Origin: Myxococcales bacterium
GTDB lineage: Bacteria; Myxococcota_A; Polyangia; Polyangiales; Polyangiaceae
Length of the DNA: 50,171 nt
Reading direction: 5' to 3'
NCBI GenBank assembly: GCA_025355005.1
Contig: JANXLV010000011.1
Location: forward strand, 1 to 50,171
Made by a program: the position numbers and the translations under genes. The notes under the pieces were generated by a model. That model had not been told where the DNA came from. It did not search any database and saw nothing but the letters and a program-made list of their open reading frames with translations. Shown in pieces: positions 3 to 26,183 of the stretch (positions are counted from its first letter, which is position 1; every line of letters starts with the position of its first letter).

Positions 3-701
3 ATGGGCCCCCTTCCGACCAGCAGCAATTACATCATTCCCGCTCCCTGGAACCCGACCCAGCCAGGCCAGCCGGGCCAGCCGGGCCAGCCGGGCCAACC
101 GGGCCTGCAGCCGGGGCAGCAGCCTCCCTGGCAGCCGAACCCAATCCCGGGCCAACCCGGCGCCGGCCAGCCTGGATATCCGCAGCCCGGTCAACCAGGC
201 GTGTACCCACAGGCCGGGCAGCCCGGATACCCGCAGCCAGGACAGCCCGGCATGTATCCGACCCAGCCGACCCAGCCCGGCCAGCCGACCCAGCCTGGTC
301 AGCCCGCTCAGCCTGTCTACCCGACCCAGCCTGGCCAGCCGCAGTACCCAGGGCAGCCCGCACAGCCGCAGGCGGGTCAACCTGGTTACCCCTATCCAAA
401 CCAGCCCGGTCAGCCTCAGCCTGGACAGCCTCAGCCTGGCCAACCCGGCAATACTCCGGGAAACCAGGTCGTGGCACCAGGCAACCCAGCGCCTCCTCCC
501 GGCTCCGCCTCGGCGCACACGACCCAAGGCGGGTTCATCACCAGCGAGCGCCGCGCGGTGGATGCTCTGGCCTCTGGCGATGCGCCGCTTGCCCTCGCCC
601 TGTACGCCCAGCTCATGCGTGAGCATCCCGAGAACCCCGTCTTTGCGGATGCGGTCCGGATCCTCAGCGCACGTGTTGATGCCGGCGCCCCCATACGCTG
701 A
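3..701 (+). CDS. Pro/Gln-rich low-complexity repeat protein, C-terminal part (gene runs off the 5' window edge); TPR-like helical C-terminus
   Basis: ORF open to the window start. Long [15 protein letters not shown] repeat run followed by a non-repetitive helical tail ([23 protein letters not shown]). High GC3 in this frame. Confidence 0.5.
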
Positions 702-1079: not shown

Positions 1080-2333
1080 ATGAAAACCTCGCGAAATGTG
1101 CGCTCCATCTTGGTCTTCTCCACCATCCTGACCGGTGTAGTAGGGGCCTTTGTCGCCTGCGGCGATGGTGGGGGCGATGGGAACTTCAACGGGTATGATC
1201 CCAACCATCCCCCTGGTGGCGGAGAGGGCGGAACAGCTGGCGGCGAGGGGGGCGGGCCCGGAACGGGCGGCGTTGACCCTGCCGAAGCGCTCTATCGCCT
1301 CTTGGAGAAGGATCTTGTTACGAAATGTGGCGGTCCCGGTGGCGGTTGCCACGTGAGCGCGACCTCGTTCTCGACCGCTCCCAAGTTCCTTGCGGCGCCC
1401 GACTCCTACAAGTCAATCAAGGCCTTTACGGGGATCGTCGTGAAGGACGTTTTCACGAGCGCTATCATCACGAAAGGCGTTCACGAGGGCGGCAGCATCT
1501 ACGACGACGGCAGCGACGCCGGGACCTCTCTGGGCAAGCGCGTGGAGGCGTGGCTTTACCAGGAATCCGCCGAGCTCCAGGCCATCAAGCGCCCCACGAC
1601 GGACCCCTTCGCGGTCACCATCGGCGCCGATAATGATGTGGACTTGAGCAAGCTTGCGACCGGCGTGACCGGCGTTCACCTGAAGTTCAAGGCGCAGCTG
1701 GTCGGTACGACCCTCGAGCTCACGAATGTCTCGCTCACGACAGCGGCGGGCTCTGGCGTCCACCTTCAGCACCCGATCTTCTACCGAGTGCCTGCAAAGA
1801 AGGCGAATCCTGCGGATCCCGACAACCAGGACCCGCAGGATACTTTCTCGAATACGGATGTGACCGTGTCCGGCGGCGCCACCACGCCACTGCCGGTTCC
1901 CTTTGCGATCTTCAGCGGTTTCGACCCCTGGATGCCGACGGACAAGCTCCGTATCGAGGCCTACAAGCTCGAAGCGGGCATCGTGAAGGAAGCAGCCGTC
2001 GCTGCAATGTGCAGCAATCCCACGAACTTCCAGAACATGGTCGCCCCGTCGTTGACCGGCGCGGGCAACAGCGCACCTCTCAACTGCTTGAATTGCCACA
2101 ACGCCGGCGGCAGCGGCAACGGCGCGCTCAATCTCTCGGGCCTCGGAAATACGAAGGACTACCCCGGTGCTTGCGCGGCCGTTCTGAACAAGATCGACAA
2201 GACCACGCCCATGAACAGCCGGATCATCCAGAAGCTCGATGGAACGATGGGCCACGCTGGTGGCGCCGTTACCAACAAGGCTGGCTGGCAGACCGACTGG
2301 AAGGGCTTCATCATGGGCGGTACCATTTTCTAG
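1080..2333 (+). CDS. Secreted lipoprotein with CXXCH (CLNCH) and CX6CH motifs; possible N-terminal half of a DUF1592/DUF1595-type PSCyt-like protein
   Basis: ATG preceded by GGGAGA. Signal peptide plus lipobox (FVAC-G). Heme-binding-type motif CLNCHN and a second C(x6)CH (KCGGPGGGCH). Co-directional and tightly spaced with the next three genes. Confidence 0.7.
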   Translation: MKTSRNVRSILVFSTILTGVVGAFVACGDGGGDGNFNGYDPNHPPGGGEGGTAGGEGGGPGTGGVDPAEALYRLLEKDLVTKCGGPGGGCHVSATSFSTAPKFLAAPDSYKSIKAFTGIVVKDVFTSAIITKGVHEGGSIYDDGSDAGTSLGKRVEAWLYQESAELQAIKRPTTDPFAVTIGADNDVDLSKLATGVTGVHLKFKAQLVGTTLELTNVSLTTAAGSGVHLQHPIFYRVPAKKANPADPDNQDPQDTFSNTDVTVSGGATTPLPVPFAIFSGFDPWMPTDKLRIEAYKLEAGIVKEAAVAAMCSNPTNFQNMVAPSLTGAGNSAPLNCLNCHNAGGSGNGALNLSGLGNTKDYPGACAAVLNKIDKTTPMNSRIIQKLDGTMGHAGGAVTNKAGWQTDWKGFIMGGTIF

Positions 2334-2438
2334 TCAGACTCTAATCGCAGCCCTGCTCCAAAGATGGAGCGGTAGTTGCTTTATGTTCAACCACGCAGAC
2401 AGCATGTTGCTGGCCGCAGATGGAAAGGTAGGGAGACG

Positions 2439-3698
2439 ATGCGACGAGGCTCATGGCAGCAAGGCCGGAACGGCGCACTCGGCATCGCATTCGCGCTCGG
2501 CTTGGCCGCGTGCGGCGGTGGCGACAGCTCGGACCAGCTCAATAACGGGACGGGTGCAACCGACCCCAACGCGCCCGGCTCCGTCAATCCGAGCCCTGGG
2601 GGCTCAACCCCTGGCGGTGGTACCGGTGGTGGCGCAACGCCGACCCCGACCCCCGTCCTCGACACCCGCGTGGTCGACTACGGCGAGGCGCTCCGAATCG
2701 CGAGCCTCAAGCTGACCGGCGACCTTCCGACGCTCGACCAGATCAATGAGATCGGTTCGGCGGCGGATGCGAAGACGGCGAAGGCGGCGTACGAGAAGGA
2801 TGTCGACGCGATGATCGCTGACAAGCGATTCACCGCGATGATGATTCAGTGGTGGCGTGACACGCTCAAGACCGGTGGGCCTCCCCCCGCGATGGGCATG
2901 CCGAGCTTCGACACGGCGGCGACATTCGCTGCAGAGGTCGTCATCAACGACCGTCCGTATTCGGACCTCTTCACGGCCGCGACCAACACGTGCCCGACCT
3001 ATACGGCGGCCACGAACGCCTTCGCGGATGCAGCCTGCACGGGCACGCAGCCGACGGCCGGTCTCCTCTCGGACCCGGGCATCCAGGCCCAGTACTTCTC
3101 CAACATGGCGATGCGCCGAACGCGCTTCATCCAGGAGACGTTCGTCTGCTCCAAGATGCCGGCGGAGTTCTCGAGCACGCCGAAGGCGATGGGCGCCGGT
3201 TCCTATACCAGCCCCTGGAACTTCAACAGCATCACGGGCGGCACCACGGCGAAGATCAACTTCCTCGACACGTCCGCTGTCATCTGCGCGAACTGCCACA
3301 CGACCATGAACCACATGGCTCCGCTGCTTGGTCACTTCGACGGCAAGGGTGTGTACGACGGCACCAAGTTCGCCGTCCTCGTCCCCGTCCCCGGAAACCC
3401 CGCCGCGCAGCTTCAGGATTGGCTCCCCGCCTCCGAAGGTTTCGCATGGCGTAACGGAGTCACCGTCACGGACATCCCGAGCCTTGGCGCTGCCATCGCG
3501 AAGGATCCGGTCGTCGCCACCTGCGCGGTCAACCGCGTGTGGAACTGGGCGATGTCTCGCGGCGATGTCGTGAACGATCTGGCTACGGTGCCTCTCACCG
3601 TTACCCAGCAGTACGTTGCGGACTTCAACAAGAACGGTCAGAAGCTCAAGGCCACCATCGCGGCGGTCTACAAGAGCGATGACTTCGTGAAGTTCTAA
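2439..3698 (+). CDS. Secreted lipoprotein with CXXCH (CANCH); DUF1588/DUF1585-like
   Basis: Internal ATG at codon 22 of ORF 2376..3698, preceded by GGGAGA. Signal peptide with lipobox (LAAC-GG). Motif CANCHTTMNHMAPLLGHFDGKG resembles the C-terminal CXXCH block of planctomycete-type DUF1588 proteins. Confidence 0.7.
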   Translation: MRRGSWQQGRNGALGIAFALGLAACGGGDSSDQLNNGTGATDPNAPGSVNPSPGGSTPGGGTGGGATPTPTPVLDTRVVDYGEALRIASLKLTGDLPTLDQINEIGSAADAKTAKAAYEKDVDAMIADKRFTAMMIQWWRDTLKTGGPPPAMGMPSFDTAATFAAEVVINDRPYSDLFTAATNTCPTYTAATNAFADAACTGTQPTAGLLSDPGIQAQYFSNMAMRRTRFIQETFVCSKMPAEFSSTPKAMGAGSYTSPWNFNSITGGTTAKINFLDTSAVICANCHTTMNHMAPLLGHFDGKGVYDGTKFAVLVPVPGNPAAQLQDWLPASEGFAWRNGVTVTDIPSLGAAIAKDPVVATCAVNRVWNWAMSRGDVVNDLATVPLTVTQQYVADFNKNGQKLKATIAAVYKSDDFVKF

Positions 3699-3724
3699 CC
3701 AGGGAAGGGAGAAGAGGAAAAATC

Positions 3725-4444
3725 ATGAAAAAACTTGCTCTCACCCTGATCAGCTCGGCGCTCCTAGTGCTCGCCGGCTGCGACGGAACCAACGACTCAC
3801 TCAGCAATGGCGGCGGTGCAGAATCCGTCGCCACCAACACGGACCAAGCCGGCGGCGGCGGTCCCAACGGCGAGAACCACAGCCAGGACCCGAACGGTGC
3901 GGACCCTACCGCTCCCTTCGCGGCCCCGGACCCTGCTCAGAAGCGGGTGGATGACGCGACCTCGGGCTCGCCCGAGACCATCGCTCGCCTCCACTCCTGC
4001 GGCAAGGTCACCGTGCAGTCCCTTTCGTCGATCCTCGCTACGCGCGGTGTCAACGTGAACGGCGGCGCGGGCTCGGCAGGTGGCATCTACAAGGCGGGTC
4101 TCGCGACCCTCGGCCAGGCGAACTACGCCAGCCGCGTTCCGGAGGCTTCGTTCGCGACTGCTTCTGGTATGACCAAGCAGATGGACATCTTCGCTGCTGC
4201 ATCGACCGAAGTCTCCAATGCGGCCTGGGCTCCGACGGGTTGCACGTCGGGCGGTATGCCGGTGAAGCTGTTCGATGCTTCGGGCGCCTTCACGAAAGAC
4301 GGCATCTCGTGCCTTCTCGGTAAGCCGGCGCGCCAAGAGCACGTCGACCTCGCGAACGCCGCCGTCACTCAGGCATCCACCCCCGCGATTGGCAAGAACA
4401 TCGCGATTTCCGCGCTCCTTTCGGCTGCGCACACCTGCGAATAA
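3725..4444 (+). CDS. Lipoprotein of unknown function
   Basis: Strong RBS (GGAGAAGAGGA). Signal peptide with lipobox LAGC-DG. In the operon between the DUF1588-like and DUF1552-like genes. Confidence 0.65.
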   Translation: MKKLALTLISSALLVLAGCDGTNDSLSNGGGAESVATNTDQAGGGGPNGENHSQDPNGADPTAPFAAPDPAQKRVDDATSGSPETIARLHSCGKVTVQSLSSILATRGVNVNGGAGSAGGIYKAGLATLGQANYASRVPEASFATASGMTKQMDIFAAASTEVSNAAWAPTGCTSGGMPVKLFDASGAFTKDGISCLLGKPARQEHVDLANAAVTQASTPAIGKNIAISALLSAAHTCE

Positions 4445-4456
4445 GGAGTCACGACC

Positions 4457-5851
4457 ATGGGCATCGACGATCGTTTGAAAGACCTTCGAGGCACGGGCCG
4501 CCGCGACTTCATGAAGTGGAGCGCGACCCTGGCCGCCGTGCTCGGTCTCGAGCGTGCTCGCTTCCTCAATGTCATGAATGACATGGGCGGCAGCGCACTC
4601 GCGGACAACACCTCCTGCACCAAGAGCTTGAGGTCGTTCCACCTGGTCGCCGGCAACGGTGGCTTCGCGTGGTTCAACCTTCTGTTCCCGCAGAACGTCA
4701 TCGCCAAGGGCACGGACCCGAACTACTCGTTCCACGCGCTTGGTAAGGCCACGAAGTCCACGCTGACGGACAACGAGCTCTACTACGCACCGGAGAGCCC
4801 GTTCCAGAAGCTCGGCAAGAAGTTCCAGGTCACGGCGTACATGGCCGGCACCAACGAGACGCATACGTCGACGCCCGCGTCGGCCGCTACGCCCTCGGGC
4901 ACCGCGAGCATGCTCGCAGGTATCGCCGCCATCCAGCAGTCGGACCCGACGCTTCTCCCCGTCATCGCGATCAACCCGTTCACGTTCGGCGCAGCTCCTG
5001 GAGCTCCGGCGACCGCGGCGGTCGGAAACGCGGCGGGCCTCGTCGACCTCTTCAACAGTGCTGCGTCCAAGACGCTGCTCGCGGTGCCCGGCGATGCCGC
5101 GCTCCACGAGGCCTACTACAAGGCTTTCCTCGGCCTCAACCGCGCCGCCGGTCGCTCGACCGTCGCGAAGGGCTACGAGACCGGCAAGGTCGCAGCGAAC
5201 CTCCTCGGAAAGAACCTTTCCGATGCGCTTCGTCCGACGACCGCTGACGACGCTGCCTACGGCATCGTTGCCGGCACGCCGACGAACGTGCTCGAGATCG
5301 CACACTCGATCATCACGGGCATCAAGGCGTTCAAGCTGGGCTTGACCTCCTCGATTATCATCCCCGCTATGCGCGACGACCCGCACGGAGCGTTCGCTGG
5401 TGGTGATGCGATGCCGACCGCCATGGCCGCGCGCCTCGGGAAGATCTTCGACGCGATGATGGCAGATGCATCCGCGTCCCCCGATCCGAGCTGCTCGTCC
5501 AAGTCGCTCGCCGACAACATCATGTTCACCATCCACGGTGACACTCCGAAGACGCCGCTCAGCCGTAACGGCTGGGGCGACGGTACGCCGAAGAACTCGA
5601 ACTGGCTGTACGTCATGGGCAACGGCTACCTGAAGACCGGCTGGTTCGGCGGCGTCAACGCCGACCAAACCACCGACGGCTTCGACCCTGCAACGGGTAA
5701 CACCGTTCCCGGCCAGGCCAGCTCTGTGACTGCGGCGAACGCAGCGACCGCGGCACTCTACGCGGCAGCAAAGGGCGACTCCCGCCGCGTCCAGGACTTC
5801 TCGCGCGCCGTAATCGACGGCCTCGTGAATCCGCTCGCATCGGTGCAGTGA
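4457..5851 (+). CDS. TAT-signal secreted protein, DUF1552-like (usual partner of DUF1588/DUF1592 proteins)
   Basis: RBS AAGGAG 8 nt upstream. Twin-arginine motif GRRDFMKWSATLAAVLG at the N-terminus. 464 aa, the typical size of DUF1552. Adjacent to DUF1588-like genes as in planctomycete/verrucomicrobial loci. Confidence 0.75.
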   Translation: MGIDDRLKDLRGTGRRDFMKWSATLAAVLGLERARFLNVMNDMGGSALADNTSCTKSLRSFHLVAGNGGFAWFNLLFPQNVIAKGTDPNYSFHALGKATKSTLTDNELYYAPESPFQKLGKKFQVTAYMAGTNETHTSTPASAATPSGTASMLAGIAAIQQSDPTLLPVIAINPFTFGAAPGAPATAAVGNAAGLVDLFNSAASKTLLAVPGDAALHEAYYKAFLGLNRAAGRSTVAKGYETGKVAANLLGKNLSDALRPTTADDAAYGIVAGTPTNVLEIAHSIITGIKAFKLGLTSSIIIPAMRDDPHGAFAGGDAMPTAMAARLGKIFDAMMADASASPDPSCSSKSLADNIMFTIHGDTPKTPLSRNGWGDGTPKNSNWLYVMGNGYLKTGWFGGVNADQTTDGFDPATGNTVPGQASSVTAANAATAALYAAAKGDSRRVQDFSRAVIDGLVNPLASVQ

Positions 5852-5855
5852 CGGC

Positions 5856-5884
5856 CAGTGACGATACCGCAGTGACGATACCGC
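5856..5884. repeat. Tandem direct repeat (c)agtgacgataccgc x2, plus a partial third copy overlapping the upstream stop codon
   Basis: Read directly from the sequence in the convergent intergenic region 5852..6075. Confidence 0.6.
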
Positions 5885-5976
5885 CTGGCCACTGAGCGCT
5901 TCGCGCTGGTGGTCAGATGGGAGAGGGACCGACCCCCAGGGAGCTCACGCTCACTGGGGGTTCGCGTTTAAGCGGC

Positions 5977-6006
5977 GTCAACGTCAACATCAACGTCAAC
6001 GTCAAC
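5977..6006. repeat. Hexanucleotide tandem repeat (gtcaac)x5, one copy atcaac
   Basis: gtcaacgtcaacatcaacgtcaacgtcaac in the convergent intergenic region. Confidence 0.7.
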
Positions 6007-6075
6007 GAGCATCGGCAACGGCTCCCGGCAGGTCGAGATGCGCCGCCGTCTATGCGTGTGTGCTCGCGCCCTGGG

Positions 6076-6630
6076 TCAGGGTTGGGTCTTGGCTTTGTCG
6101 CAGAAGGACTTGTCGTTGGTGCCCAGGGCGACGGTCGGATCTTGCGGGAGGCGGAGCCACGCGGTGATGCAGCGGTAGGGCGCGCTCTCTTTTGCGAAGA
6201 GGGCGCCGCCCTTGTGTCGCTCGAGGTTCATCGCCTTGCGGAGGAAGAGCAGGATGTCGGCGTTCTGCCCGTTCTGCGCCATCACGCGGTTGAACGTCTC
6301 GGGCTCGACGGAGATGAGGGCGAAGTAGTTCGCGTTGATCTCTTCTTGCGTCGTCTGCTGGATGCCCGGGATCAGGCCTGCTTCCTGGCTGTAGAGCCGG
6401 AGGCCGCGGAAGCCGTACACGCGGAAGCCGCGGCCGGGCTCACCATGGCAGTCGAGCGTGCCGCACTGCTTCTCGATGTAGGGGTCGACCGAGTCACGGA
6501 ACGCCGGGTAATTCGGGCCGATCAGCGCGGTGAATCGCTTGTCGTCGGGGACCGATGCGCACGACACCGCGGCCGTTGCGCTGGAGAGCGCGCCGAGCCC
6601 GACGGCGAGCGTGAACATGCCCATGAGCAT
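6076..6630 (-). CDS. Lipoprotein with CX4CH motif (QCGTLDCHG), unknown function; paralogous to domains in the genes at 1080 and 10369
   Basis: Start moved to internal ATG (MLMGMFTLAVGLGALSSATAAVSCAS) by codon arithmetic; the N-terminal extension of the ORF is Arg/Pro-rich junk. Signal peptide plus lipobox. Confidence 0.6.
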   Translation of the reverse strand: MLMGMFTLAVGLGALSSATAAVSCASVPDDKRFTALIGPNYPAFRDSVDPYIEKQCGTLDCHGEPGRGFRVYGFRGLRLYSQEAGLIPGIQQTTQEEINANYFALISVEPETFNRVMAQNGQNADILLFLRKAMNLERHKGGALFAKESAPYRCITAWLRLPQDPTVALGTNDKSFCDKAKTQP

Positions 6631-6680
6631 CTTCGTCTTGATGGTCCTGCCGGACTTGCCGGGATCGCTGGAGGTGTTCA

Positions 6681-7349
6681 CTAGAAAAGATCCTCCGGGC
6701 ACACGAGGGGTGGGTCGGGCTCGACGGCGGGTGGGCACTGCACCGGCGAGTTTGGCGGGTTCTGGTTCACAGCCACGTGGCCTGGCGAGTCGAAGAACGA
6801 CGGATCCTTGTGGCAGTTCGCGCACGATGGCTCACGCCCCACGTGCCCGACCATCGCGACGACGGGCTGGTTGCCAGTGCCAGAGGTCTTCTGCACGCTC
6901 ACGAGGAAGGGGAATTTGAGGCCTTTCGCGCCGAGCCGGTCGGGCGTCGCGCGGAAGTTACCCATGCAGTTGGTGACGAAGCAGAGGTTTGCGTTATCGG
7001 CGGTGAGGATGCGCACGAACGCCTGGTCCACCGGTACCGGCACCTTCGGGTTCGCCGGGTCGTACTTCTGATAGAAGACGGTGCCTGCGATCGCGAACAC
7101 GTTCTTCGCGGGACCCTCGCCGCCGTGACAGACGGTGCACGGCTGCCCGCCGCGGTGATACTGGCCCGCGGGAATGTTCGGGTCCTCGCCGCCGAGCGCC
7201 TTGACCTGGCCGTCGTGTACCGGGTCGAGCGAGCAGCTGGAAGCAAACGAGGCGACGATGGCGAGCGCGGCCATCGAGAGACTGGCCTGCACCAGGCGCT
7301 CGTTTTGGGGCATCGCGGAGTGGGCTTTGGGTTCGGTGTTGCTGCGCAT
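6681..7349 (-). CDS. Diheme c-type cytochrome lipoprotein (two CXXCH)
   Basis: CTVCHGG and CANCHKD motifs. Signal peptide with lipobox (FASSC-S). GGAG RBS before ATG 7349; alternative ATG at 7313. The start abuts the stop of the upstream 768-aa gene. Confidence 0.7.
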   Translation of the reverse strand: MRSNTEPKAHSAMPQNERLVQASLSMAALAIVASFASSCSLDPVHDGQVKALGGEDPNIPAGQYHRGGQPCTVCHGGEGPAKNVFAIAGTVFYQKYDPANPKVPVPVDQAFVRILTADNANLCFVTNCMGNFRATPDRLGAKGLKFPFLVSVQKTSGTGNQPVVAMVGHVGREPSCANCHKDPSFFDSPGHVAVNQNPPNSPVQCPPAVEPDPPLVCPEDLF

Positions 7350-7351
7350 GA

Positions 7352-9658
7352 CTAGAACTCCACGTCGAACGCTACGGTCCCGTACACACCAGTACGCGTG
7401 GTGACGAAAAGAGATTTCAAGAAGCGCGTGTACATGACGTCGCCCGCGAGATTGAGGCCGTACTGCACCTCGCCCTCCGGGTTGCCGAGCGCGATGCGTG
7501 CGCCGCCGCCGCCGGTGACCGTGATGAGCGGCGCGAGCTCGCGGTCGCCGGAGCGGTACGTCGGCAGGAGGAGCGTGCCGCCCTGATCCACGAAGCCGCT
7601 GTACGCGAGCTGGTAGAAATTAGTGCCTGTTTGACCGTGAAAACGCAGGTGCGGCCACACGCGAAGGTGCTTGGAGAGGTCGACCATGTAGCGCGCGTCC
7701 GTGGACGACGCCTTGGTCTGCCAGCTGTCGAAGTAGATGCGCTCTTCGATGCGGAACGTGGAGCTGCCCAACCGCTTGTTGTAGCGGCCGCCGACGGCGA
7801 AGCGATCGCGCTCCGTGGGCAGCTGCTCGAGCGGGCGCGGGGGCAGGCGGACGCGATTCACCAGGTCGACCGTGGCGCCGGTGGGCACGAACGGCGCGAC
7901 GCCTTGCGGATCGAAGATGGGGACGTAGCGATAGGGCTTCGACTGATCGCCGCGCTCGAACTGCGCGGTCCCTCCCACCAGAAGGATCGACGTGGGCGAG
8001 AGCACGAACGTCGTGCTCGCCTCGATCTCATGCGTGGTGAGGACGCCCTTGTGATCAGGGTCGATGTCACCGAGCCAGTTACCCGCGAACAGACCACTCG
8101 AGCCCGGGCCAGCGGGACCGCGGCCGATCTTGTCGTAGCTGAACGAATACGAGAGACGTGGCGTGCTGAGCTTGTCGTTCACGTCCGCCGTGACCGCGAG
8201 GCCGACGGTGGTCGACAGGTAGTCGGGCTCGCTCGAGACGTTGAAGTTCGCCTGCGCACCGTAGAGCCCAGGCTTGTAGCCGCCCGTGATTCCGCCTGCG
8301 TGGCGAGCCTCGTGGAACGGCGGGGATGCCTCCGACACGAGGTCGGGCGAGGCCGCGCTGACGACGTCCAGGATGTAGTGGCCGCCCACGTTCCAGCCCG
8401 ACGTTGGCGAGATGACCGCTGCGTTGATGCCGGGCGTGACGACGTTGACGTGGTTTGTGTCGGAGTAGGCGCTGAAGTCCGCGCCGACCTTGATGACGAG
8501 GTTCTTGCGATTCTGGGGGAGGCACTTCTGCACCTCCTCCTGGTTTTTCGCCTGGAGCATGCACTGGATCTGCGGGCCCGTGATGATCTTGGAGCTCTGC
8601 GACGGCTTCAGCGTGAGGCGGACCGTGATGAGGTCCTTCTCCTTTACCTCGAGCTCTTCCTCGTACGTGGCGGGGAAGCCGTTGACCGTGCCTTCGGCGA
8701 GGACGGTGTGCTTGCCGGGATCGATCGAGAACTTCTTGGTGAGCGCCTCGGTCGGGACCTGGCGGTCGTCGAACTTGACGGACAGGTCCGTGACGCCAGC
8801 GGGGGGCGCGAACGTCACGTGAGGGATGCGCTCGATGAGCTCCTTCACGCGGTTGCGCGACACCTTCATCACGCCCGCATCCTTCTTCGCGATGCCGACC
8901 TCAAGCGCCTTCTGCGCGTCACGGAGCGCGTCGACGAGCTTGTTTGCGCGCGACTCGCACGACGCGAGGTGGAGGCGCGTGCGGGGCTGCTCCTCGGCCT
9001 TGAGTGATGCTTTGTCCTTCTCGATGCACTCGTCCAGCTTGCCGTCCTGATCGGCCTTGAGGCCTTCGAGGGCGAGCTTGAATGCGTCGACGCTGGTCCA
9101 GCCAGGCGGAGCCTTGCCTCCGGGGTTCTCCTCCGGCGGCGGGTCTCCACCACCACCTCCGCCAGCGCCGCCCGCGGTCGAAGCGGCGCCGGACACCGCG
9201 GCCTTCACGTCGGCGAACTGCTGCTTGATGTTGGGAGTGGCGCCGCTCGACGGGAGCTTTGCGTCCGCGTCAGCCTTGATCGCCGTCTCGAAGTTGGTCT
9301 TCGCTTCGTCCGCGTTGCCGAACTGCGACGCGACCATGCCGAGCGCGATGTAGATCTGCGCCTTCGTGGGGGCGGAGCAGCCCTTCTTCAAACAGCCAGA
9401 AAGAAGCTCGTTCAGCTTGGTCTTGGCTGGGCCGAGGTTCGCCGGGTACTCCTCGGTCATGATCTGCTGGAGCTGATCGGACGTCGCGTCGGCCATCGCC
9501 ACACGCGGAGCAAACGCGACCACGCTCGCTACGAGGACGCACAGCGCGAAGAGCGCAAGCCGAGCCGAGCCGACTCTCGCGCTGCGAGGGGTGGCTGCTC
9601 GACGCGAACGTCGATCACGAGACAAAGGTGCCCTATGGGCACGGGGCGTCCGATTCAC
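7352..9658 (-). CDS. Large outer-membrane protein: signal peptide, TPR-like N-terminal region, C-terminal beta-barrel ending in F (DUF3570-like)
   Basis: 768 aa. Arg-rich n-region followed by a hydrophobic signal. The C-terminal half has alternating amphipathic strands and the terminal residues ...VAFDVEF, typical of OM beta-barrels. The exact start is uncertain (GTG 9658, or an in-frame TTG downstream). Confidence 0.7.
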   Translation of the reverse strand: MNRTPRAHRAPLSRDRRSRRAATPRSARVGSARLALFALCVLVASVVAFAPRVAMADATSDQLQQIMTEEYPANLGPAKTKLNELLSGCLKKGCSAPTKAQIYIALGMVASQFGNADEAKTNFETAIKADADAKLPSSGATPNIKQQFADVKAAVSGAASTAGGAGGGGGGDPPPEENPGGKAPPGWTSVDAFKLALEGLKADQDGKLDECIEKDKASLKAEEQPRTRLHLASCESRANKLVDALRDAQKALEVGIAKKDAGVMKVSRNRVKELIERIPHVTFAPPAGVTDLSVKFDDRQVPTEALTKKFSIDPGKHTVLAEGTVNGFPATYEEELEVKEKDLITVRLTLKPSQSSKIITGPQIQCMLQAKNQEEVQKCLPQNRKNLVIKVGADFSAYSDTNHVNVVTPGINAAVISPTSGWNVGGHYILDVVSAASPDLVSEASPPFHEARHAGGITGGYKPGLYGAQANFNVSSEPDYLSTTVGLAVTADVNDKLSTPRLSYSFSYDKIGRGPAGPGSSGLFAGNWLGDIDPDHKGVLTTHEIEASTTFVLSPTSILLVGGTAQFERGDQSKPYRYVPIFDPQGVAPFVPTGATVDLVNRVRLPPRPLEQLPTERDRFAVGGRYNKRLGSSTFRIEERIYFDSWQTKASSTDARYMVDLSKHLRVWPHLRFHGQTGTNFYQLAYSGFVDQGGTLLLPTYRSGDRELAPLITVTGGGGARIALGNPEGEVQYGLNLAGDVMYTRFLKSLFVTTRTGVYGTVAFDVEF

Positions 9659-11829: not shown

Positions 11830-12882
11830 ATGACGACGGAGACATCGCGCACGAAGAGCGAGTCACCGCCCACGGCTCGCGTGCGGCCCACGCGCAACTG
11901 GCAGCGCCTCGGCTACCGGCGCATCGTGCAGCTGCTCGTCTATCTGGTCATCATTCCGACGGTGCTGCTGCTCGCGATCGGCATCATCACGTTGTTCCTC
12001 GAAGGCCGCATCAACCTGGTCTTCGGGCTCTTGACGATCAGCTTCGTGGCGGTCGTGGTCACGGGCGTCGTGCTCGTGATCGTGTTCGTCAATCGCGAGG
12101 CGAACCTCTCCGAGCTGCAGGCCGACTTCGTGTCCAAGGTGAGCCATGAGCTCCGCACGCCGCTCACCGCCATCCGACTCTTTGCGGAGACCATGGAGCG
12201 GAACAAGGGCGATCAGGAGACGATCGATCAATGCTTGCAGCTCCTCGTGGGCGAGTCCGAGCGGCTCACGCGCCTGATCGAGCGCCTCCTCGACTGGGGA
12301 CGCATGGAGGCCGGTCGCAAGATCTACGACCTGCGCACCGAGAACGTGCAGGACATCGTGGACGACGTGGTGCGCGCCTACGCTCCGCACAAATACGCCG
12401 ACGACGCGCTCACGTTCGAGACCCAGGTCGCGCCGCACCTGCCATGCGTGCGCGTGGATCGCACCGCCGTGGTCGATGCGCTCGTCAACTTGCTCTCCAA
12501 CGCGCGCAAATACGGCGGCACCCCGCCAGTGGTCACGCTCGATGTGAAGCAGAATCCAGACGGCGACGTGGCGTTCGAGGTCACGGACAACGGCGCTGGC
12601 ATCGACCTCGCCGAGCAGCGCCGCATCTTCCAAAAATTCTACCGCATCGACGATCGCCTCTCGCGCACGCGCGAGGGAAGCGGACTGGGCCTCGCGATCG
12701 TGAAGCACATCGCGCGCGCGCACCACGCAGAGGTCGGTGTCCGCAGCGAAAAAGGCAAAGGCTCAACCTTCAGCTTGATCCTGGAGAGGTCCATCAGTAG
12801 TCAGGACACTGACGCGCGGGGAAAGGGCGCGCCTGCACCCCCCGATGACGCAGACGAACGCGAAGACAAAGCCAAAGCATAG
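11830..12882 (+). CDS. Sensor histidine kinase (two closely spaced TM helices, no periplasmic domain)
   Basis: H-box ELRTPLTAIRLF. N, G1 and G2 boxes (DNGAGIDL, GSGLGLAIV). Two TM helices separated by a very short loop. Confidence 0.9.
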   Translation: MTTETSRTKSESPPTARVRPTRNWQRLGYRRIVQLLVYLVIIPTVLLLAIGIITLFLEGRINLVFGLLTISFVAVVVTGVVLVIVFVNREANLSELQADFVSKVSHELRTPLTAIRLFAETMERNKGDQETIDQCLQLLVGESERLTRLIERLLDWGRMEAGRKIYDLRTENVQDIVDDVVRAYAPHKYADDALTFETQVAPHLPCVRVDRTAVVDALVNLLSNARKYGGTPPVVTLDVKQNPDGDVAFEVTDNGAGIDLAEQRRIFQKFYRIDDRLSRTREGSGLGLAIVKHIARAHHAEVGVRSEKGKGSTFSLILERSISSQDTDARGKGAPAPPDDADEREDKAKA

Positions 12883-17505: not shown

Positions 17506-18519
17506 TCACAGGTCTTTGGCGCAGCGGAGGCCCGTCATGAGGAGACGGAAGTACCCTGGATGGTGGACGCGGTTCGACGAGCGCAGGCCTTCGGCTCCGT
17601 AGTTGTAGGCGCCGCCGCGGATCGATTTCTCGCACTCCACCGGGATCGGATTGGAGCCTGTGTAGCCCTGCTTGTGATCGCGTCGCAGCTCGTCCTGTGC
17701 GCGCCTTATCTCTTCGCACGTTCCAGGAATGCCCTTGTCCGCTCCTGCGCGGCGATACGCGTACGGATCGTAGTCGTCCTGCATCCACTCCCAGACGTTG
17801 CCGGCGAGGTCGTCGTGCCCGTACGGCCCGCGGCCCTTCGGATGCGCGCCCACATCGTCGGGCCACGACGTACCGAACACCGTGATCTCCGGCGTCGCGA
17901 GCTCGTTGCCCCACGGATAGCGACGCGCATCGGTTCCGCGCGACGCCTTCTCCATCTCGGCCTCGCGCGGCAACCGCTTGCCGCTCCAGGTGCAGTACGC
18001 GCGCGCGTCGAACCACGAGACCCCCGTCACGGGCTTCCGCGGCCCCCGAAACTTCGCCCCACCCTTCACGACCGTCCCCGGATCCGGCGCGGTGCAAGCC
18101 TTCGCAGCGACACACGCCTGATACGCGGACTGCGTCACCTCCGTGCGATCGAGGAAGAACCCCGCAAGCTCCACCTGATGAGCAGGATGCTCGTCCTCCT
18201 CACCGATCGAATCCGAGCCCATCGTGAAAGGACCAGCGGGAACGAGGAGCATGTCCGGGGGAGGGGAAGGGGAGGAGGGTGAGGGTGAGGGTGAGGTCGA
18301 GGGTGAGGGTGAGGTCGAGGGTGAGGGTGAGGTCGAGGTCGAGGTCGAGGTCGAGGTCGAGGTCGAGGTCGAGGTCGACCCGGCGCTCGCTAGCGTGCCT
18401 ATGAACGACGTCCTCGTCCCTTCTCCCGCTCCCGCTTCATTCCGCACGCAGTGCACCCCTACGCTGGCGAACACGGCCAGCGTTAGTAGCGTCTCTGCCC
18501 TGAGCCCTGAGCGCCGCAT
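17506..18519 (-). CDS. Secreted formylglycine-generating-enzyme (FGE/SUMF1)-family protein with (ST)n/(SP)n linker
   Basis: Only the C-terminal 337 aa of the 902-aa ORF are real. Signal peptide MRRSGLRAETLLTLAVFASVG. FGE-sulfatase motifs (GVSWFDARAYCTWSGKRLPREAEME, GNVWEWMQD, RGGAYNY). The upstream part is antisense to ABC genes. Confidence 0.8.
   Translation of the reverse strand: MRRSGLRAETLLTLAVFASVGVHCVRNEAGAGEGTRTSFIGTLASAGSTSTSTSTSTSTSTSTSPSPSTSPSPSTSPSPSPSSPSPPPDMLLVPAGPFTMGSDSIGEEDEHPAHQVELAGFFLDRTEVTQSAYQACVAAKACTAPDPGTVVKGGAKFRGPRKPVTGVSWFDARAYCTWSGKRLPREAEMEKASRGTDARRYPWGNELATPEITVFGTSWPDDVGAHPKGRGPYGHDDLAGNVWEWMQDDYDPYAYRRAGADKGIPGTCEEIRRAQDELRRDHKQGYTGSNPIPVECEKSIRGGAYNYGAEGLRSSNRVHHPGYFRLLMTGLRCAKDL
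18262..18380. repeat. Coding microsatellite: (gagggtgagggtgaggtc)x3 followed by (gaggtc)x~8, encoding a Ser/Thr/Pro linker on the minus strand
   Basis: Read directly from the sequence; lies inside the FGE-like CDS. Confidence 0.8.
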
Positions 18520-18594
18520 GACTACCTGGAAATTAGGCCGAATCGACGCCATACGAAACTTTTCTGCGTGGTATACGGAGGGACAAGGCCGTTC

Positions 18595-19581
18595 GTGATC
18601 TCCGTCCGCAACCTGGTGAAGCACTACGGATCGCACGTTGCGGTCGACGACCTCTCGTTCGAGGTCGAAAAGGGCAGCGTGGTCGGGTTCCTCGGGCCGA
18701 ACGGGGCCGGCAAGAGCACAACGCTCCGCATCCTGTCCGGCTTCCTCGGTCGGACCGCCGGTGAGGTCACGATCGACGGCCACCAGGTCGACACCTACGA
18801 CGCCAAGCGCGCCACCGGCTACATGCCGGAGGCCGTGCCGCTCTACCCCGAGATGCGCGTCGTCGAATATCTCCGCTTCCGCGCCGAGCTGAAGGAGGTC
18901 CCGCGCAAGGATCGTCGGCCCTTCGTCGACCTCGCGATGGAGCGCGCGCGCGTGACCGACGTCGCGACACGCACCATCGGTGACCTCTCGAAGGGCTACC
19001 GACAGCGCGTTGGGCTCGCGGACGCGCTCGTCGCCAAGCCACCGCTCCTCATCCTGGACGAGCCCACCGCAGGCCTCGACCCGAACCAGATGCGCGAGGT
19101 CCGCGACGTCATCAAGGGCCTCGGCAAGGAGCACACGGTCCTCTTGTCCACGCACATCCTCTCCGAGGTCGAGGCCAGCTGCGACGAGGTCGTCGTCATC
19201 AACAAGGGCAAGCTCGTCGCGCGCGGCACCAAGGAAGAGATCCAGAAGAAGCGGCGCTCCGCCGGGCTCTCCTTCGTGGTGCGCGGCGACAAGGCCACCT
19301 GCGTGCGCGTGCTCACGCAGAGCGGATCGTTCGGAAAGATCACGACGACGCCCGACGCCCAGGATCCCGCGCTCCTCAACGCAGAGGCGCGCTGGAAGAA
19401 GGGCCTCGCGGAGCCGGGCCTCGCGACCGAAGCCGCCGTGGCCGCGCTCTTGGGCGCAGGTCTGTTCGTTCGCTCCGTCACCGTCGAGAAGAGCACGCTC
19501 GAGGACGTCTTCGCGGAGCTCACGCGCGCCGCGGTCCCCACCAGCGCCGACGCGGTGGAGCCGGAACAGGAGGACGAATAG
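18595..19581 (+). CDS. ABC transporter ATP-binding protein (ABC-2/GldA-like)
   Basis: Walker A GPNGAGKST. Signature LSKGYRQRVGLA. Walker B LLILDEPTAGLD. Start set to GTG at 18595 (MISVRNLVKHYG, GGAGGG upstream); ORF-track GTG at 18568 is the alternative. Confidence 0.9.
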   Translation: MISVRNLVKHYGSHVAVDDLSFEVEKGSVVGFLGPNGAGKSTTLRILSGFLGRTAGEVTIDGHQVDTYDAKRATGYMPEAVPLYPEMRVVEYLRFRAELKEVPRKDRRPFVDLAMERARVTDVATRTIGDLSKGYRQRVGLADALVAKPPLLILDEPTAGLDPNQMREVRDVIKGLGKEHTVLLSTHILSEVEASCDEVVVINKGKLVARGTKEEIQKKRRSAGLSFVVRGDKATCVRVLTQSGSFGKITTTPDAQDPALLNAEARWKKGLAEPGLATEAAVAALLGAGLFVRSVTVEKSTLEDVFAELTRAAVPTSADAVEPEQEDE

Positions 19582-20337
19582 ATGCGCGGCTTCTGGCCAA
19601 TCCTCAAGCGGGAGGTGTTCACGTTCTTCGTGACGCCGCTCGCGTGGGTCCTCATCTGCGTGTTCCTGCTCGTGCAAGGCATGCACTTCTACTTGCTCGT
19701 CGATCACTTCTCGAACCAGGCAGAAGTGATCAGCGATCAGACGCCGCTGCAGGCGTTCTTCGGCAACACCGTGCTCCTCTACCTGGTGCTCTTCCTGCTG
19801 GTCCCGCCGATCACGATGCGCCTCTTCGCCGAAGAGCGACGCAGCGGCACCGTGGAGACGCTGCTCACGGCGCCCGTGTCGCCTGCCGCCGTCGTGCTCG
19901 CGAAGTACGTGTCCGCGCTCGTCACGTACGTGTCCATGTGGGCGCCCACGGTGCTCTATCTCGTCATCCTGAATCGCACCGGCCCCATCGACTGGCACGT
20001 CGCGTCCGCCGCTTACCTTGGCGTGTTCTGCGTGGGCGCGGGGTACCTGTCGCTCGGCCTCCTCATGAGCGCGCTCACGAAGAGCCAGTTCTTGGCGCTC
20101 ATCCTCACCGCCATGTGCATCATGGGTCTCTTCATCCTGGGCGTGGGTGAGTTCGTCACGCACGAGGGCCAGACCCTCCACGACGTCTGCGCGCACGTCT
20201 CCGTCTGGGCGCACATGAACGACTTCGGCAGCGGCATCATCGACTCGCGCCGTCTTGTCTTCTACGGAAGCATCGTCGCGCTGTCGCTCTTCTGCACCAC
20301 GCGCGTGGTGGACTCCTGGCGCTGGGGTGACGCTTGA
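19582..20337 (+). CDS. ABC-2 family permease (GldF-like)
   Basis: AGGAGGA RBS. Six predicted TM segments. ATG immediately after the ATPase stop. Confidence 0.85.
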   Translation: MRGFWPILKREVFTFFVTPLAWVLICVFLLVQGMHFYLLVDHFSNQAEVISDQTPLQAFFGNTVLLYLVLFLLVPPITMRLFAEERRSGTVETLLTAPVSPAAVVLAKYVSALVTYVSMWAPTVLYLVILNRTGPIDWHVASAAYLGVFCVGAGYLSLGLLMSALTKSQFLALILTAMCIMGLFILGVGEFVTHEGQTLHDVCAHVSVWAHMNDFGSGIIDSRRLVFYGSIVALSLFCTTRVVDSWRWGDA

Positions 20338-24125: not shown

Positions 24126-26183
24126 ATGAGCGAACGCGACGCACGTGAACGAGACATTCTGGTTGCACCCTCCGAGTACGCCTACGTCCAGGACCTGACG
24201 AAGGGGGACATTGTCCTCTACGTGGGTCCCACGAAGATCAGCCTCTCCAACACCGAGCGCATCGTGGAGCTGCGCGAGAACCGCTTCGTCCCCGTCCGCG
24301 CGGACGACCCGAGCTTCGGCGTGAGCCCGTTCGTGTCGGCCTCGTCCTCGCAGTACATCGTGCTCGAGAATCCCGTGCTGGAAGGAAAGGAGGCGCGCCC
24401 CATTCGCGGCGGCAACACGGCGGTGGACCTCGCCGTGGGTCGCAAGGTCGTCGTGGCCGGACCGACGATGTTCCCGCTGTGGCCCGGTCAGCGTGCGCGC
24501 GTGATCGACGCTCACCCGCTGCGCGAGGACGAGTACCTGATCGTGCGCTACTACGACCGCGTCCCCGAAGATCCGCATCCCATCGGCTCCGAGCTGGTCG
24601 TGCGCGGCGCGGACGTGTCGTTCTACGTACCGCGCACCGGGCTCGAGGTCGTCCCCGCGGAGGTCGTGCCCGGACGCTGGCGGTACGTGCGCAAGGCCAC
24701 GCGCTTCCCGAGGCCCGGGGGCTTGCACGTGCGCGTCACGAAGCAGCTCACCGCAGATGAATGGCACGCCCTTCCCGCGGGGACGTACGCGGCCGGCACG
24801 GACGTGTTCTTGGCCGATCGCGACGGCTACTTCTTCCCGGACGAGAACGTGGAGGTCATCGCTCTGGTGTTGCCCGTTCCGATCGCGGAGAAGGAAGGGC
24901 TCTACGTGCGTGATCGCCCCACGGGTCGCATCGCGACGATCATGGGCCCGGCGAACTACCTCTGCGATCCGACGCGTGAGGAGCTCGTGCCCCGCGTGCT
25001 GTCGCCGGAGCGCGTGAAGCTCTATGGCCTCGCCCATCACGACCCGATGCGTGCCGTCGCGGTGAACGTGCCGCCCGGCTTCGCGGTGCTTGTCACTGGG
25101 AAGACGAAGCGCGAGGTCGTGAAGGGACCGGAGACGCGCATCCTGGACTTCGACGAGGAGCTGACGGTGCAGCGTCTGTCAACGGGTCGCCCCAAATCGG
25201 ACGAGAGCACGCTCGAGACCTGCTTCTTGCAAGTGGAGAGCAACAAGGTGAGCGACACGCTCTCCGTGCGCACGCGCGATCACGTGGAGGTGCAGATCTC
25301 CGTGTCCTACCGTGTGTCGTTCGAAGGGCAGGACAGGCAGCGCTGGTTCCACGTGAAGGACTACGTCGGTCTCCTCTGTGATCACGCGGGCTCCATCCTG
25401 CGCGCCGCGTCGCGCACCACGAGCATCGAGCTGTTCCAGCGCGAGGCGACCGAGATGTTGCGTACCGCGATCCTGGGAGAGCGTCGCGACGTGGAGGGGG
25501 AGGGCGCGGGACCGCCGCGAAGGCCTGGGCGTGCGTTCACCGAGAACGGGATGTGGGTCTACGATCTGGAGGTTCTGGACGTGCGCATCCTGGACGCGGA
25601 CGTCAAGAAGCTGCTGGACGGCGCCCAGCGCGCGGCCATCGTGAGCGACGCGAAGCGGCGCGAGGAAGAGCGTCGCCTGTCCGAGGAGCGACTGCGCGCG
25701 GAGGTCGATCGCGAGGTGGGCGACGCGCAGATCCTGGCGCTGGCGAAGGCGCTGGAGGTGGAGGGCGCGCGTGCGGCGCTGGAGGAGCGTCGGGCTGCGT
25801 CGCTCGTTACGGTCGAGCGCGTCACGCGCGTGGGCGCGGCGGAGGCGGAGGCGCGCGCGCTTACCATCGAGCGCGACGCGGAGGCGCAGTCACTCGAGCG
25901 TCGCGCGGAGCTCGGTCGGAAGACGCTGGAGGCGCAAGTTGCGGCGTTCGAGAAGCAGATGGCTGCGCTGGCGCCGGAGCTCATCTCCACGCTCACCACG
26001 CTGGGCCATCAGAAGCTTGCCGCGGAGCTGTCCCTGAACGTGGGCCCGCTCGCGGTGCTGGGCGGCGGAAGCGTCACGGAGATCGTCGAGAAGCTCCTCG
26101 GCGCGCTCCCCGTGGGCGCAAAGAAGACGGTCGCGGACGTGCTCGTCCATCGCAACGGAGCGGCCATTCCAAAGTCCACCTGA
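24126..26183 (+). CDS. Major vault protein (MVP) homolog: MVP repeats, SPFH-like shoulder and coiled-coil cap helix
   Basis: N-terminus APSEYAYVQDLTKGDIVLYVGPTKISLSNTERIV parallels eukaryotic MVP ([35 protein letters not shown]). Shoulder motifs EGLYVRDRPTGRIATIMGP and LSTGRPK parallel EGIYVQDVKTGKVRAVIGS and LSAGRPK. Arg/Glu-rich coiled coil in the C-terminal third. 685 aa, so fewer repeats than the 9 in human MVP. Confidence 0.85.
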   Translation: MSERDARERDILVAPSEYAYVQDLTKGDIVLYVGPTKISLSNTERIVELRENRFVPVRADDPSFGVSPFVSASSSQYIVLENPVLEGKEARPIRGGNTAVDLAVGRKVVVAGPTMFPLWPGQRARVIDAHPLREDEYLIVRYYDRVPEDPHPIGSELVVRGADVSFYVPRTGLEVVPAEVVPGRWRYVRKATRFPRPGGLHVRVTKQLTADEWHALPAGTYAAGTDVFLADRDGYFFPDENVEVIALVLPVPIAEKEGLYVRDRPTGRIATIMGPANYLCDPTREELVPRVLSPERVKLYGLAHHDPMRAVAVNVPPGFAVLVTGKTKREVVKGPETRILDFDEELTVQRLSTGRPKSDESTLETCFLQVESNKVSDTLSVRTRDHVEVQISVSYRVSFEGQDRQRWFHVKDYVGLLCDHAGSILRAASRTTSIELFQREATEMLRTAILGERRDVEGEGAGPPRRPGRAFTENGMWVYDLEVLDVRILDADVKKLLDGAQRAAIVSDAKRREEERRLSEERLRAEVDREVGDAQILALAKALEVEGARAALEERRAASLVTVERVTRVGAAEAEARALTIERDAEAQSLERRAELGRKTLEAQVAAFEKQMAALAPELISTLTTLGHQKLAAELSLNVGPLAVLGGGSVTEIVEKLLGALPVGAKKTVADVLVHRNGAAIPKST

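Follow-up and report, generated by a model that had tools for sequence, protein, structure and literature searches.

Systems in which a PSCyt/PSD protein is encoded next to a partner exported by twin-arginine translocation (Tat) were first described in Rhodopirellula, and dozens of copies are present in planctomycete and verrucomicrobial genomes. The version that pairs a PSD3-to-PSD2 protein with a DUF1552 protein is known in Planctomycetota, Verrucomicrobiota and plasmids of Sphingomonadaceae. PSCyt/PSD proteins and their Tat partners are among the largest conserved bacterial exported families of unknown function, and the modules formed with DUF1501 or DUF1552 are conserved pairs that are viewed as cytochrome-like, carbohydrate-binding partners plus a Tat-exported enzyme, electron transfer being suspected (PMC3542564, PMC5615132). 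Here we describe a cassette of four genes in a 50,171-nucleotide (nt) stretch of DNA from a Myxococcales bacterium of the Polyangiaceae (assembly GCA_025355005.1, contig JANXLV010000011.1, positions 1 to 50,171), hereafter referred to as the window. The cassette consists of four successive open reading frames (ORFs) on the + strand at 1080-5851, labelled A, B, C and D, and we regard it as related, in a compact and unbundled form, to the uncharacterised 'planctomycete cytochrome' gene pairs rather than as a new kind of system, a statement on architecture and evolution in which we have good confidence. The four genes are as follows (aa, amino acids):

1080-2333, + strand: gene A, ORF of 417 aa, predicted lipoprotein
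2439-3698, + strand: gene B, ORF of 419 aa, predicted lipoprotein (alternative TTG start at 2376)
3725-4444, + strand: gene C, ORF of 239 aa, predicted lipoprotein
4457-5851, + strand: gene D, ORF of 464 aa, Tat-signal protein

Judged by sequence comparison, B is clearly, if remotely, homologous to the PSD4-PSCyt3-PSD2 core of the DUF1592/1588/1585 proteins, without PSD3 and PSD5. Its Pfam matches remain just below threshold but stand in the canonical order, i.e. PSCyt2/DUF1549 at residues 79-175 (28.9 bits, cutoff 29.8), PSCyt3/DUF1588 (PF07627) at 208-306 (24.2 bits, gathering cutoff 27, E 4.2e-5) and PSD2/DUF1585 at 340-416 (18.5 bits, cutoff 25.8). Most B homologues have a precomputed PF07583 match, and some close ones a precomputed PF07627 match. 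Comparison by hhalign with a canonical protein from Sphingobium (described below) gave a probability of 98.2 (E 5.4e-14), with residues 74-411 of B corresponding to 194-524 of the reference, and comparison with a profile built from 62 canonical large-protein ORFs and fragments gave a probability of 98.3 (E 2e-14), covering PSD4, PSCyt3 and PSD2. The hhalign match begins only at the PSD4 region, no Pfam match to PSD3 (DUF1587) or PSD5 (DUF1595) was found in B, and residues 1-75 consist of a signal peptide and a low-complexity tether. A profile sequence search of the PDB with B returned nothing significant. The protein contains a conserved motif:

3285-3350, + strand: CXXCH...FDxxG signature of B, C283-A-N-C286-H287 ... 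G298-H-F-D-G-K-G304

Without exception, 36 homologues retain C283, C286 and H287, and CANCH...GHFDGKG aligns with CASCHRKTDPLGLGLEQFDGAG (CASCH...EQFDGAG) of the reference PSCyt3 domain. An earlier, preliminary description of this locus, made from the sequence alone, had placed B in the DUF1588/DUF1585 world, and the sub-threshold PSCyt2, PSCyt3 and PSD2 matches together with the hhalign results bear this out. In the databases, homologues of B and D go by the names 'hypothetical protein', 'DUF1549 domain-containing protein' and 'twin-arginine translocation signal domain-containing protein'.

The canonical comparators were obtained by a plasmid search with B, followed by a metagenome scan with a DUF1552 alignment, which yielded 80 further canonical loci. 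On the Sphingobium plasmid AP027331.1 (L083:4972-7979), a Pfam-verified PSD3-PSD5-PSD4-PSCyt3-PSD2 protein of 551 aa, which is complete and has no cytochrome N-module, is followed by a DUF1552/HXXSHH protein of 450 aa. Both are annotated as 'hypothetical protein', and they adjoin a TonB-dependent receptor and an AraC regulator. A second verified pair was found on a Planctomyces plasmid. As the Sphingobium protein demonstrates, the canonical family is neither planctomycete-specific nor necessarily giant, so that the initial view of a family of giant proteins only had to be given up. In the metagenome loci, the gene upstream of DUF1552 is almost always a single ORF of 740-1500 aa that runs from PSD3 to PSD2, and in every canonical locus with both genes complete the DUF1552 gene follows directly, with no intervening gene. 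All canonical proteins scanned have PSD3 and PSD5 placed between their cytochrome module and PSD4, the N-terminal cytochrome module matches both PSCyt1 and Cytochrome_CBB3 in Pfam, and one protein has a CBM60 domain between PSD3 and PSD5. Across Planctomycetota, Verrucomicrobiota and some Proteobacteria, the PSD4-PSCyt3-PSD2 core is always found beside a Tat-exported partner of about 450 aa (DUF1552).

The cytochrome module that these proteins hold in cis is supplied by gene A in trans and in duplicate, together with a beta-sandwich. Following the lipobox (Cys27), a Gly-rich tether extends to about residue 65, after which come a cytochrome-c-like module, the beta-sandwich and a second cytochrome-c-like module. 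This layout is reflected in the AlphaFold model (pLDDT, predicted local distance difference test, 74; pTM, predicted template modelling score, 0.43), which is helical at 67-168 and 312-417 with a beta-sandwich at about 175-300 in between:

1326-1352, + strand: haem-type motif of the A N-module, C83-GGPGGG-C90-H91, with expanded spacing; distal S127...H135 conserved
1602-1979, + strand: central beta-sandwich of A, residues about 175-300 of the predicted model
2085-2099, + strand: CXXCH of the A C-module, C336-L-N-C339-H340; distal S380 and H392 conserved

Against a canonical PSCyt1-type reference (the aligned CXXCH-containing N-terminal modules of 34 canonical large proteins, with column-shuffled controls), the C-module (305-417) scored 39.5 (probability 92.3, E 5.6e-7; shuffled 9.2+-2.0, maximum 14.8) and the N-module (62-172) 26.1 (E 2.2e-4; shuffled 10.1+-1.7), while the two modules match each other with E 6.5e-5. 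In the C-module, C336, C339 and H340 are invariant in 26 homologues, the spacing being CXXCH in 21 of the 26 members and CX4CH in the remainder. In the N-module, C83, C90 and H91 are found in at least 90% of the aligned members and H135 is invariant; its spacing ranges from CX2CH to CX6CH across homologues, with CX6CH in the window protein. Both modules retain S-x-[IL]-[IL]-x-K...H-x-G after the haem motif, which suggests that the cytochrome-c-like modules of A have a His as distal ligand (H135, H392) where the canonical modules have Met-Pro-Pro. Pfam recognises little of this, as Cytochrome_CBB3 matches only 12 of the 26 homologues, and weakly (best E 1.6e-4), the PSCyt1 model does not match the A family, and the window protein itself has no Pfam or NCBIfam family. 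Neither a PDB profile sequence search with A nor a Foldseek search of its model against the PDB (at E<=1e-3) returned a significant match, and hmmsearch did not match the beta-sandwich to the variable inserts of the canonical large proteins.

With a PSCyt1-like protein followed by the conserved core, it is natural to ask whether A and B are the N-half and C-half of one ancestral DUF1587/1595/1592/1588/1585 protein, between which and a divergent DUF1552 (D) gene C was inserted later. B does equal the C-terminal core, and A does have PSCyt1-like modules, as does the canonical N-terminus. What a fission should have left behind, i.e. PSD3 and PSD5, is however undetectable in A, B or C. None of the 26 A family members has a PSD3 or PSD5 Pfam match at E<=5, and hhalign of A with the canonical profile and with the proteins from Sphingobium and Planctomyces (the latter PSCyt1-PSD3) gave probabilities of at most 5.5%, with no similarity to PSD3, PSD5 or PSD4. 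Conversely, the beta-sandwich and the second cytochrome module of A have no canonical counterpart, and cytochrome-c modules are mobile and common, so that sharing one is no proof of fission. A makes up a separate family of stand-alone proteins about 400 aa long (370-430 aa in nearly all of the best 150 of 975 profile matches, among 1.8 billion representatives) and, as far as its sequence goes, is not the missing PSD3/PSD5 half of the large protein. The canonical large gene is interrupted in two loci, which could be taken as precedents for a split: on the plasmid of Planctomyces sp. SH-PL62 (L084:1726-5810) the annotation gives the large PSCyt1-PSD3...PSD2 gene as two ORFs that overlap (DUF1587 and DUF1592 proteins), and at L141:1725-4967 the gene is split by a single in-frame stop. 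Both look like frameshift or stop errors or pseudogenes instead of conserved splits. D, moreover, does not match DUF1552 by Pfam, motif or mature-domain profile (see below), and fission of a single ancestral gene is unlikely. The idea of a divided large protein, with which the preliminary description had explained the locus, survives only to the extent that A carries two PSCyt1-like modules and a beta-sandwich (some canonical proteins have a CBM, i.e. carbohydrate-binding module, insert in the equivalent region); PSD3, PSD5 and PSD4 are not found in A, and alignment to full-length homologues did not uphold an N-half/C-half split, as B alone covers the conserved core.

A more trivial version of the same idea is that A and B make up a single gene, which a sequencing error or a pseudogenising mutation of recent date has interrupted. 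The two share a reading frame and are separated by just 105 nt:

2334-2438, no strand: spacer between A and B, containing two in-frame stops and, at 2353-2372, a weak hairpin resembling a terminator

The in-frame stops between them are TAG codons at 2331-2333 and 2373-2375. B is preceded by a Shine-Dalgarno site of its own and starts with a lipoprotein signal peptide that is conserved, the ...IF/VFF ending is common to 26 homologues of A, and the two genes are separate in about 66 independent assemblies, complete genomes included. Conservation of both the end of A and the signal peptide of B excludes a frameshift within one gene, and this explanation retains a probability next to nil.

The expression and export signals fit four separate genes in a high-GC background (64-71% in the window). 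Reading of the sequence gives Shine-Dalgarno-like sites for A (GGGAGA, 9 nt 5' of ATG), B (GGGAG, 3 nt), C (GAGGA, 6 nt) and D (AAGGAG, 8 nt), and beyond the A-B spacer the distances are only 26 nt (B-C) and 12 nt (C-D). A, B and C each start with a K/R-rich n-region, a hydrophobic core and a lipobox (FVAC27, LAAC25 and LAGC19, respectively), followed by a Gly/Pro/Thr-rich tether of about 40-50 residues. By a pattern test only, the K/R n-region and lipobox are present in 19 of 26 (A), 30 of 36 (B) and 10 of 15 (C) homologues, and several of the negative ones are N-terminally truncated sequences. A, B and C are thus predicted to be lipid-anchored lipoproteins on long flexible tethers. In these respects the preliminary description had read the locus well: the four co-directional genes with their Shine-Dalgarno sites were found again from ORFs and sequence, the CXXCH motifs of the putative lipoproteins A and B (CLNCH; CANCH...GHFDGKG) proved invariant in 26 and 36 homologues, and C, taken for a lipoprotein of unknown family, indeed gave empty Pfam and PDB sequence searches.

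A scan of one genome per species yielded 80 related loci, the sources of which are all Myxococcota-type (Polyangiaceae, Polyangium, Byssovorax, Minicystis, Labilithrix, Kofleriaceae). Of the 69 loci whose upstream DNA is long enough, 66 have the co-directional order A-B-C-D by tblastn and hidden Markov model searches, among them those of the cultured species Polyangium aurulentum, P. fumosum, P. jinanense and Minicystis rosea; the same four genes occur in the same order in a 7-Mb contig of a metagenome-assembled genome (MAG) and in the complete genome of P. aurulentum. None of the other flanking genes is common to more than about 20% of the loci, and given the absence of another conserved neighbour and the kept gene order, the cassette is to be regarded as a unit. 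Invariance of the motifs and the gene order in 66 of 69 loci rule out chance. The cassette is specific to Polyangia, a class of myxobacteria, and its nearest relative in public data is a Polyangiales MAG (JBBRNJ010000105.1, L003), with identities to the window proteins of 95% (A), 93% (B), 95% (C) and 98% (D). In the other related loci these are 25-42% (A), 43-65% (B), 33-49% (C) and 45-67% (D), which makes D the most conserved of the four. Homologues amount to at least 883 clusters for D and at least 683 for B (about 410-440 aa); for A, 25 were found by word search and 975 by full profile search. Several MAGs contain two or three paralogous D genes or whole cassettes (the sets within one MAG being L039/L082, L040/L081, L015/L054, L020/L044, L022/L036/L050 and L019/L041).

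Gene D lies downstream of the PSCyt3 gene B, one gene removed because C stands between them, and starts with a Tat motif:

4499-4516, + strand: twin-arginine motif R15-R16-D-F-M-K20 (GRRDFMKW), with R15, R16 and F18 invariant

The preliminary description had named D as a 464-aa protein with a twin-arginine signal, and RRxF[LM][KR] is present in 38 of 38 D members, 36 of which also match the Pfam TAT_signal model (best E 2.8e-6); other Pfam families were not matched by any of the 38, even at E<=10. D would accordingly be a substrate of the Tat pathway, and so would cross the membrane already folded. In its predicted model, D has the core alpha/beta fold of the alkaline-phosphatase superfamily, with a helical insertion of about 100 residues (190-295) that is partly of low confidence. 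All of its structural neighbours are hydrolases, transferases or mutases of this superfamily, at sequence identities of 5-14%, and D is thus predicted to share their fold. The invariant residues comprise G66/G68 after the first strand, H136, D307-D308-P309-H310 and H360-G361-D362, of which DDPH (307-310), HGD (360-362) and H136 are plausible candidate metal ligands.

These residues also bear on whether D is an enzyme at all. The cassette might encode non-catalytic envelope components, with D as an inactive scaffold of the PbgA/YejM kind and the CXXCH motifs as thiol or metal sites instead of haem sites, as could be argued from the first metal-ligand position after strand 1, which is GNG and not Asp (a position derived from knowledge of the superfamily), and from the variable CXnCH spacing in A. 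Such a role is very unlikely in view of the very strong conservation of D, including its invariant DDPH and HGD Asp/His clusters, and of the invariant CXXCH of B, located in the same place as in canonical PSCyt3. At the other extreme, the cassette could be a pure electron-transfer or oxidoreductase module, in which D carries a redox cofactor and its fold is a scaffold, while A and B are the cytochromes of a short periplasmic chain. Tat export is typical of cofactor-bearing redox enzymes, and A and B together have up to three haem-type motifs. The same reasoning from Tat export to a cofactor-bearing redox enzyme was applied to DUF1501 by Kamneva et al. (PMC3542564), and the X183 cytochrome domain of Cbp2D can donate electrons to lytic polysaccharide monooxygenases (LPMOs) (PMC8981238). 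D, however, has no CXXCH, no Cys-rich or nucleotide-binding motif and only one invariant Cys (C54), and without exception its structural neighbours are the hydrolases, transferases and mutases mentioned above, which makes a purely redox function quite unlikely.

By size, Tat signal and downstream position D resembles the DUF1552 partner, as had been proposed from the start, but neither Pfam, nor the HxxSHH motif, nor the profile of the mature domain supports the assignment. None of the 38 members matches Pfam DUF1552 (HXXSHH, PF07586) at E<=10, a tool that gives E 5e-47 and 1e-82 for DUF1552 proteins used as reference, and none has an H..SHH or H..[ST]H[HE] motif. In profile-profile comparison (with DUF1552 profiles of 4, 25 and 72 sequences), the alignment is confined to the stretch from the Tat signal to the first strand (E 5e-3 to 6e-4); the mature domain scores 15.9 against 16.7+-2.5 for block-shuffled controls, and the global alignment falls below the shuffles. 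An apparent collinearity of motifs seen by eye (GNG, LF, AF..T, L.DN, G..L.TG) was not relied on, as the global alignment is no better than shuffles. The identification of D as a DUF1552 protein was rejected, no support having come from Pfam, from the motif or, outside the Tat region, from local or global comparison of profiles. The same applies to DUF1501 (PF07394), for which no Pfam match was obtained and hhalign against two Pfam-confirmed members (E 5e-145 and 5e-132) scored 14.6 (E 0.59). PDB profile sequence searches with D, DUF1552 and a DUF1501 protein gave nothing significant. DUF1501 presumably belongs to the Pfam alkaline-phosphatase clan. By the same profile method, DUF1552 and DUF1501 match each other with an E of only 0.0025, and the negative results for D are therefore weak evidence against common ancestry.

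Gene C encodes a further protein of no known family. Its Cys19 lipobox is followed, from residue 69 to 239, by a conserved Cys-containing core of about 170 aa; an alignment of 22 homologues has a mean column identity of 44%, with C92, C173, C196 and C238 conserved. There is no Pfam or PDB sequence match and, signal peptide aside, no similarity to A, B, D or the canonical proteins; hmmsearch found none to the variable inserts of the latter either. The possibility that C is the missing PSD3/PSD5 piece was discarded (hhalign probability at most 1.3%). C stands between B and D in all cassettes, and it is a Polyangia-specific addition.

Taken together, A-D probably form a self-contained extracytoplasmic module of four proteins, a membrane-tethered periplasmic complex analogous to the DUF1588/DUF1552 pairs. 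The four proteins would assemble as one complex at the periplasmic face of a membrane, in which D would be the catalytic subunit, dependent on metal and with an ester-type or related compound as its substrate, and B its obligate partner, the CXXCH...FDxxG site of which may bind haem or another metal centre. A could relay electrons to or from B, or dock the substrate via its beta-sandwich, and C might be an assembly or anchoring accessory, so that the cassette would work like a DUF1588/DUF1552 (or DUF1549/DUF1501) pair unbundled into single-function genes. As a specific mechanism, a 'redox-assisted esterase-type enzyme' is doubtful. Somewhat less so, although still tentative, is a further possibility: that the cassette is the minimal, one-function-per-gene form of the PSCyt/PSD plus Tat-partner system, with D founding a clade of the alkaline-phosphatase superfamily that had gone unrecognised and is the true, very divergent counterpart of DUF1552/DUF1501, and with C as a new obligatory subunit.

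Several points weigh against the four-protein complex and its analogy with the known pairs. A may have its own transcript, as the 105-nt A-B spacer contains the weak hairpin at 2353-2372; this hairpin was picked up in a terminator scan, yet at a frequency expected by chance (3 found versus 3.8 expected), and the promoter/terminator scan as a whole remained at chance level. The order A-B-C-D has exceptions, namely two loci without detectable A (L035, L037) and one lone D (L054); the ORFs upstream of L054 and L035 have no Pfam match. Past the Tat/first-strand region D has no sequence relation to DUF1552 or DUF1501, the E of 6e-4 to 1e-3 for the full-length protein collapsing to null once the N-terminus is removed, and the case for shared ancestry with these partners is limited to position, size, Tat export and predicted fold. 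Haem binding by A and B is read from their motifs, and the spacing in the N-module of A (CX2-6CH) is non-standard. We know of no demonstration of covalent haem c at the CXXCH of canonical PSCyt3 either. Finally, a literature search found no experimental datum on the A, B, C or D families, and neither a functional study nor a description of the A-B-C-D arrangement came up under the relevant DUF, PSCyt and PF terms.

Downstream, the cassette is separated from convergent genes by an intergenic region:

5933-5960, no strand: GC-rich hairpin CCCCCAG...CTGGGGG, read from the sequence, between D and the convergent genes

This hairpin, which was missed by the consensus scan because of its long loop, is a probable bidirectional terminator of the cassette. 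Just past the stop codon of D, at 5857-5884, lies a perfect 14-nt tandem duplication (AGTGACGATACCGC x2), and a run of CAACGT/CAACAT hexamers occurs at about 5976-6008 in the convergent intergenic region. The convergent genes (6076-9658, - strand) encode two small exported proteins with haem-type motifs (6076-6825 with CGTLDCH; 6681-7349 with CTVCH and CANCH) adjoining a 768-aa TPR and DUF3570 protein (DUF3570 Pfam match E 4.5e-19), a family that we take to be an outer-membrane barrel; in L001 this trio is followed by a DUF4266 gene. It was rejected as a functional part of the cassette, as no more than 11 of 82 loci have it, and these are all close relatives, which amounts to lineage synteny. 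Upstream, at 3-701 (+ strand), a Pro/Gln/Gly-rich repeat protein (PGQPGQPGQ...) with a TPR-like C-terminus is possibly cut by the window start, and weak homologues of it lie upstream of the cassette in 8 related loci. Further away are a histidine kinase (HisKA and HATPase_c; 11830-12882, + strand) about 6 kb downstream of the cassette, with which the neighbour survey of related loci saw no conserved association; a 902-aa protein (17506-20214, - strand) with a C-terminal FGE-sulfatase (formylglycine-generating-enzyme-like) domain (E 5.6e-43), whose gene is 12 kb from D and without an evident link to it, D being of sulfatase-like predicted fold but having no C/S-x-P-x-R motif; and a 685-aa bacterial MVP-like protein (24126-26183, + strand), the domains of which are a Major Vault Protein shoulder (E 6.5e-23) and vault repeats.

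For the superfamily as a whole, the cassette means that the conserved core can shrink to PSD4-PSCyt3-PSD2 (about 345 mature residues), that the cytochrome module can come in trans, and that the partner position can hold a Tat protein of predicted phosphatase fold without detectable sequence similarity to DUF1552 or DUF1501. It also defines three families without Pfam models (A, C and D), with hundreds of members in soil and freshwater Polyangia. The cassette itself does not reveal the function, but it sharpens the domain boundaries and offers small, separately expressible proteins from culturable hosts; if the one-function-per-gene reading is true, such small separate parts in the cultured Polyangium and Minicystis could reveal the chemistry of the whole superfamily.

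Of the systems to which the cassette can be compared, the alkaline-phosphatase superfamily (ENPP/NPP phosphodiesterases, S1 sulfatases, PafA/PhoK phosphatases and phosphoethanolamine transferases) has sequence identities to D of 5-14%, none of the 38 D members has a superfamily Pfam match, and the canonical first metal-binding Asp position appears as GNG. Cbp2D of Cellvibrio japonicus is a modular protein with c-type-cytochrome-like domains and an annotated DUF1587, the isolated X183 domain of which can reduce LPMOs (PMC8981238). Set beside A by description only, it is likewise an exported protein in which beta-sandwich modules accompany a small cytochrome-c module of class I-like type, which suggests, as a lead only, an electron-donor role towards an extracytoplasmic enzyme; unlike Cbp2D, A has no recognisable CBM family and no DUF1587, and the cassette has no LPMO gene.

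The PSCyt1-PSCyt2-PSD1 (DUF1549/DUF1553) system with DUF1501, of which four-gene versions have been described (PMC3542564), also joins a cytochrome-motif protein to a Tat-exported partner, the N-terminal domain of B scores best against PSCyt2/DUF1549, and one B homologue is named a DUF1549 domain-containing protein by NCBI. B nevertheless lacks PSD1/DUF1553 and has PSCyt3 and PSD2, the hallmarks of the other group, and D is unlike two Pfam-confirmed DUF1501 proteins. It is with that other group, the PSD3-PSD2/DUF1552 pairs, that the cassette shares most: the PSD4-PSCyt3-PSD2 core of B including CXXCH...FDxxG, a Tat-signal protein of about 450-460 aa downstream, and a PSCyt1-like cytochrome module with a beta-sandwich, here carried by gene A. 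It differs from them in having no PSD3 and PSD5, in PSCyt2 rather than PSD4 being the best Pfam match of the first domain of B, in a Tat partner without a DUF1552 match by Pfam, motif or profile, in the extra putative lipoprotein C between the core gene and the Tat gene, and in the predicted lipoprotein nature of all three non-Tat proteins, the cytochrome modules being duplicated and placed on a lipoprotein of their own.

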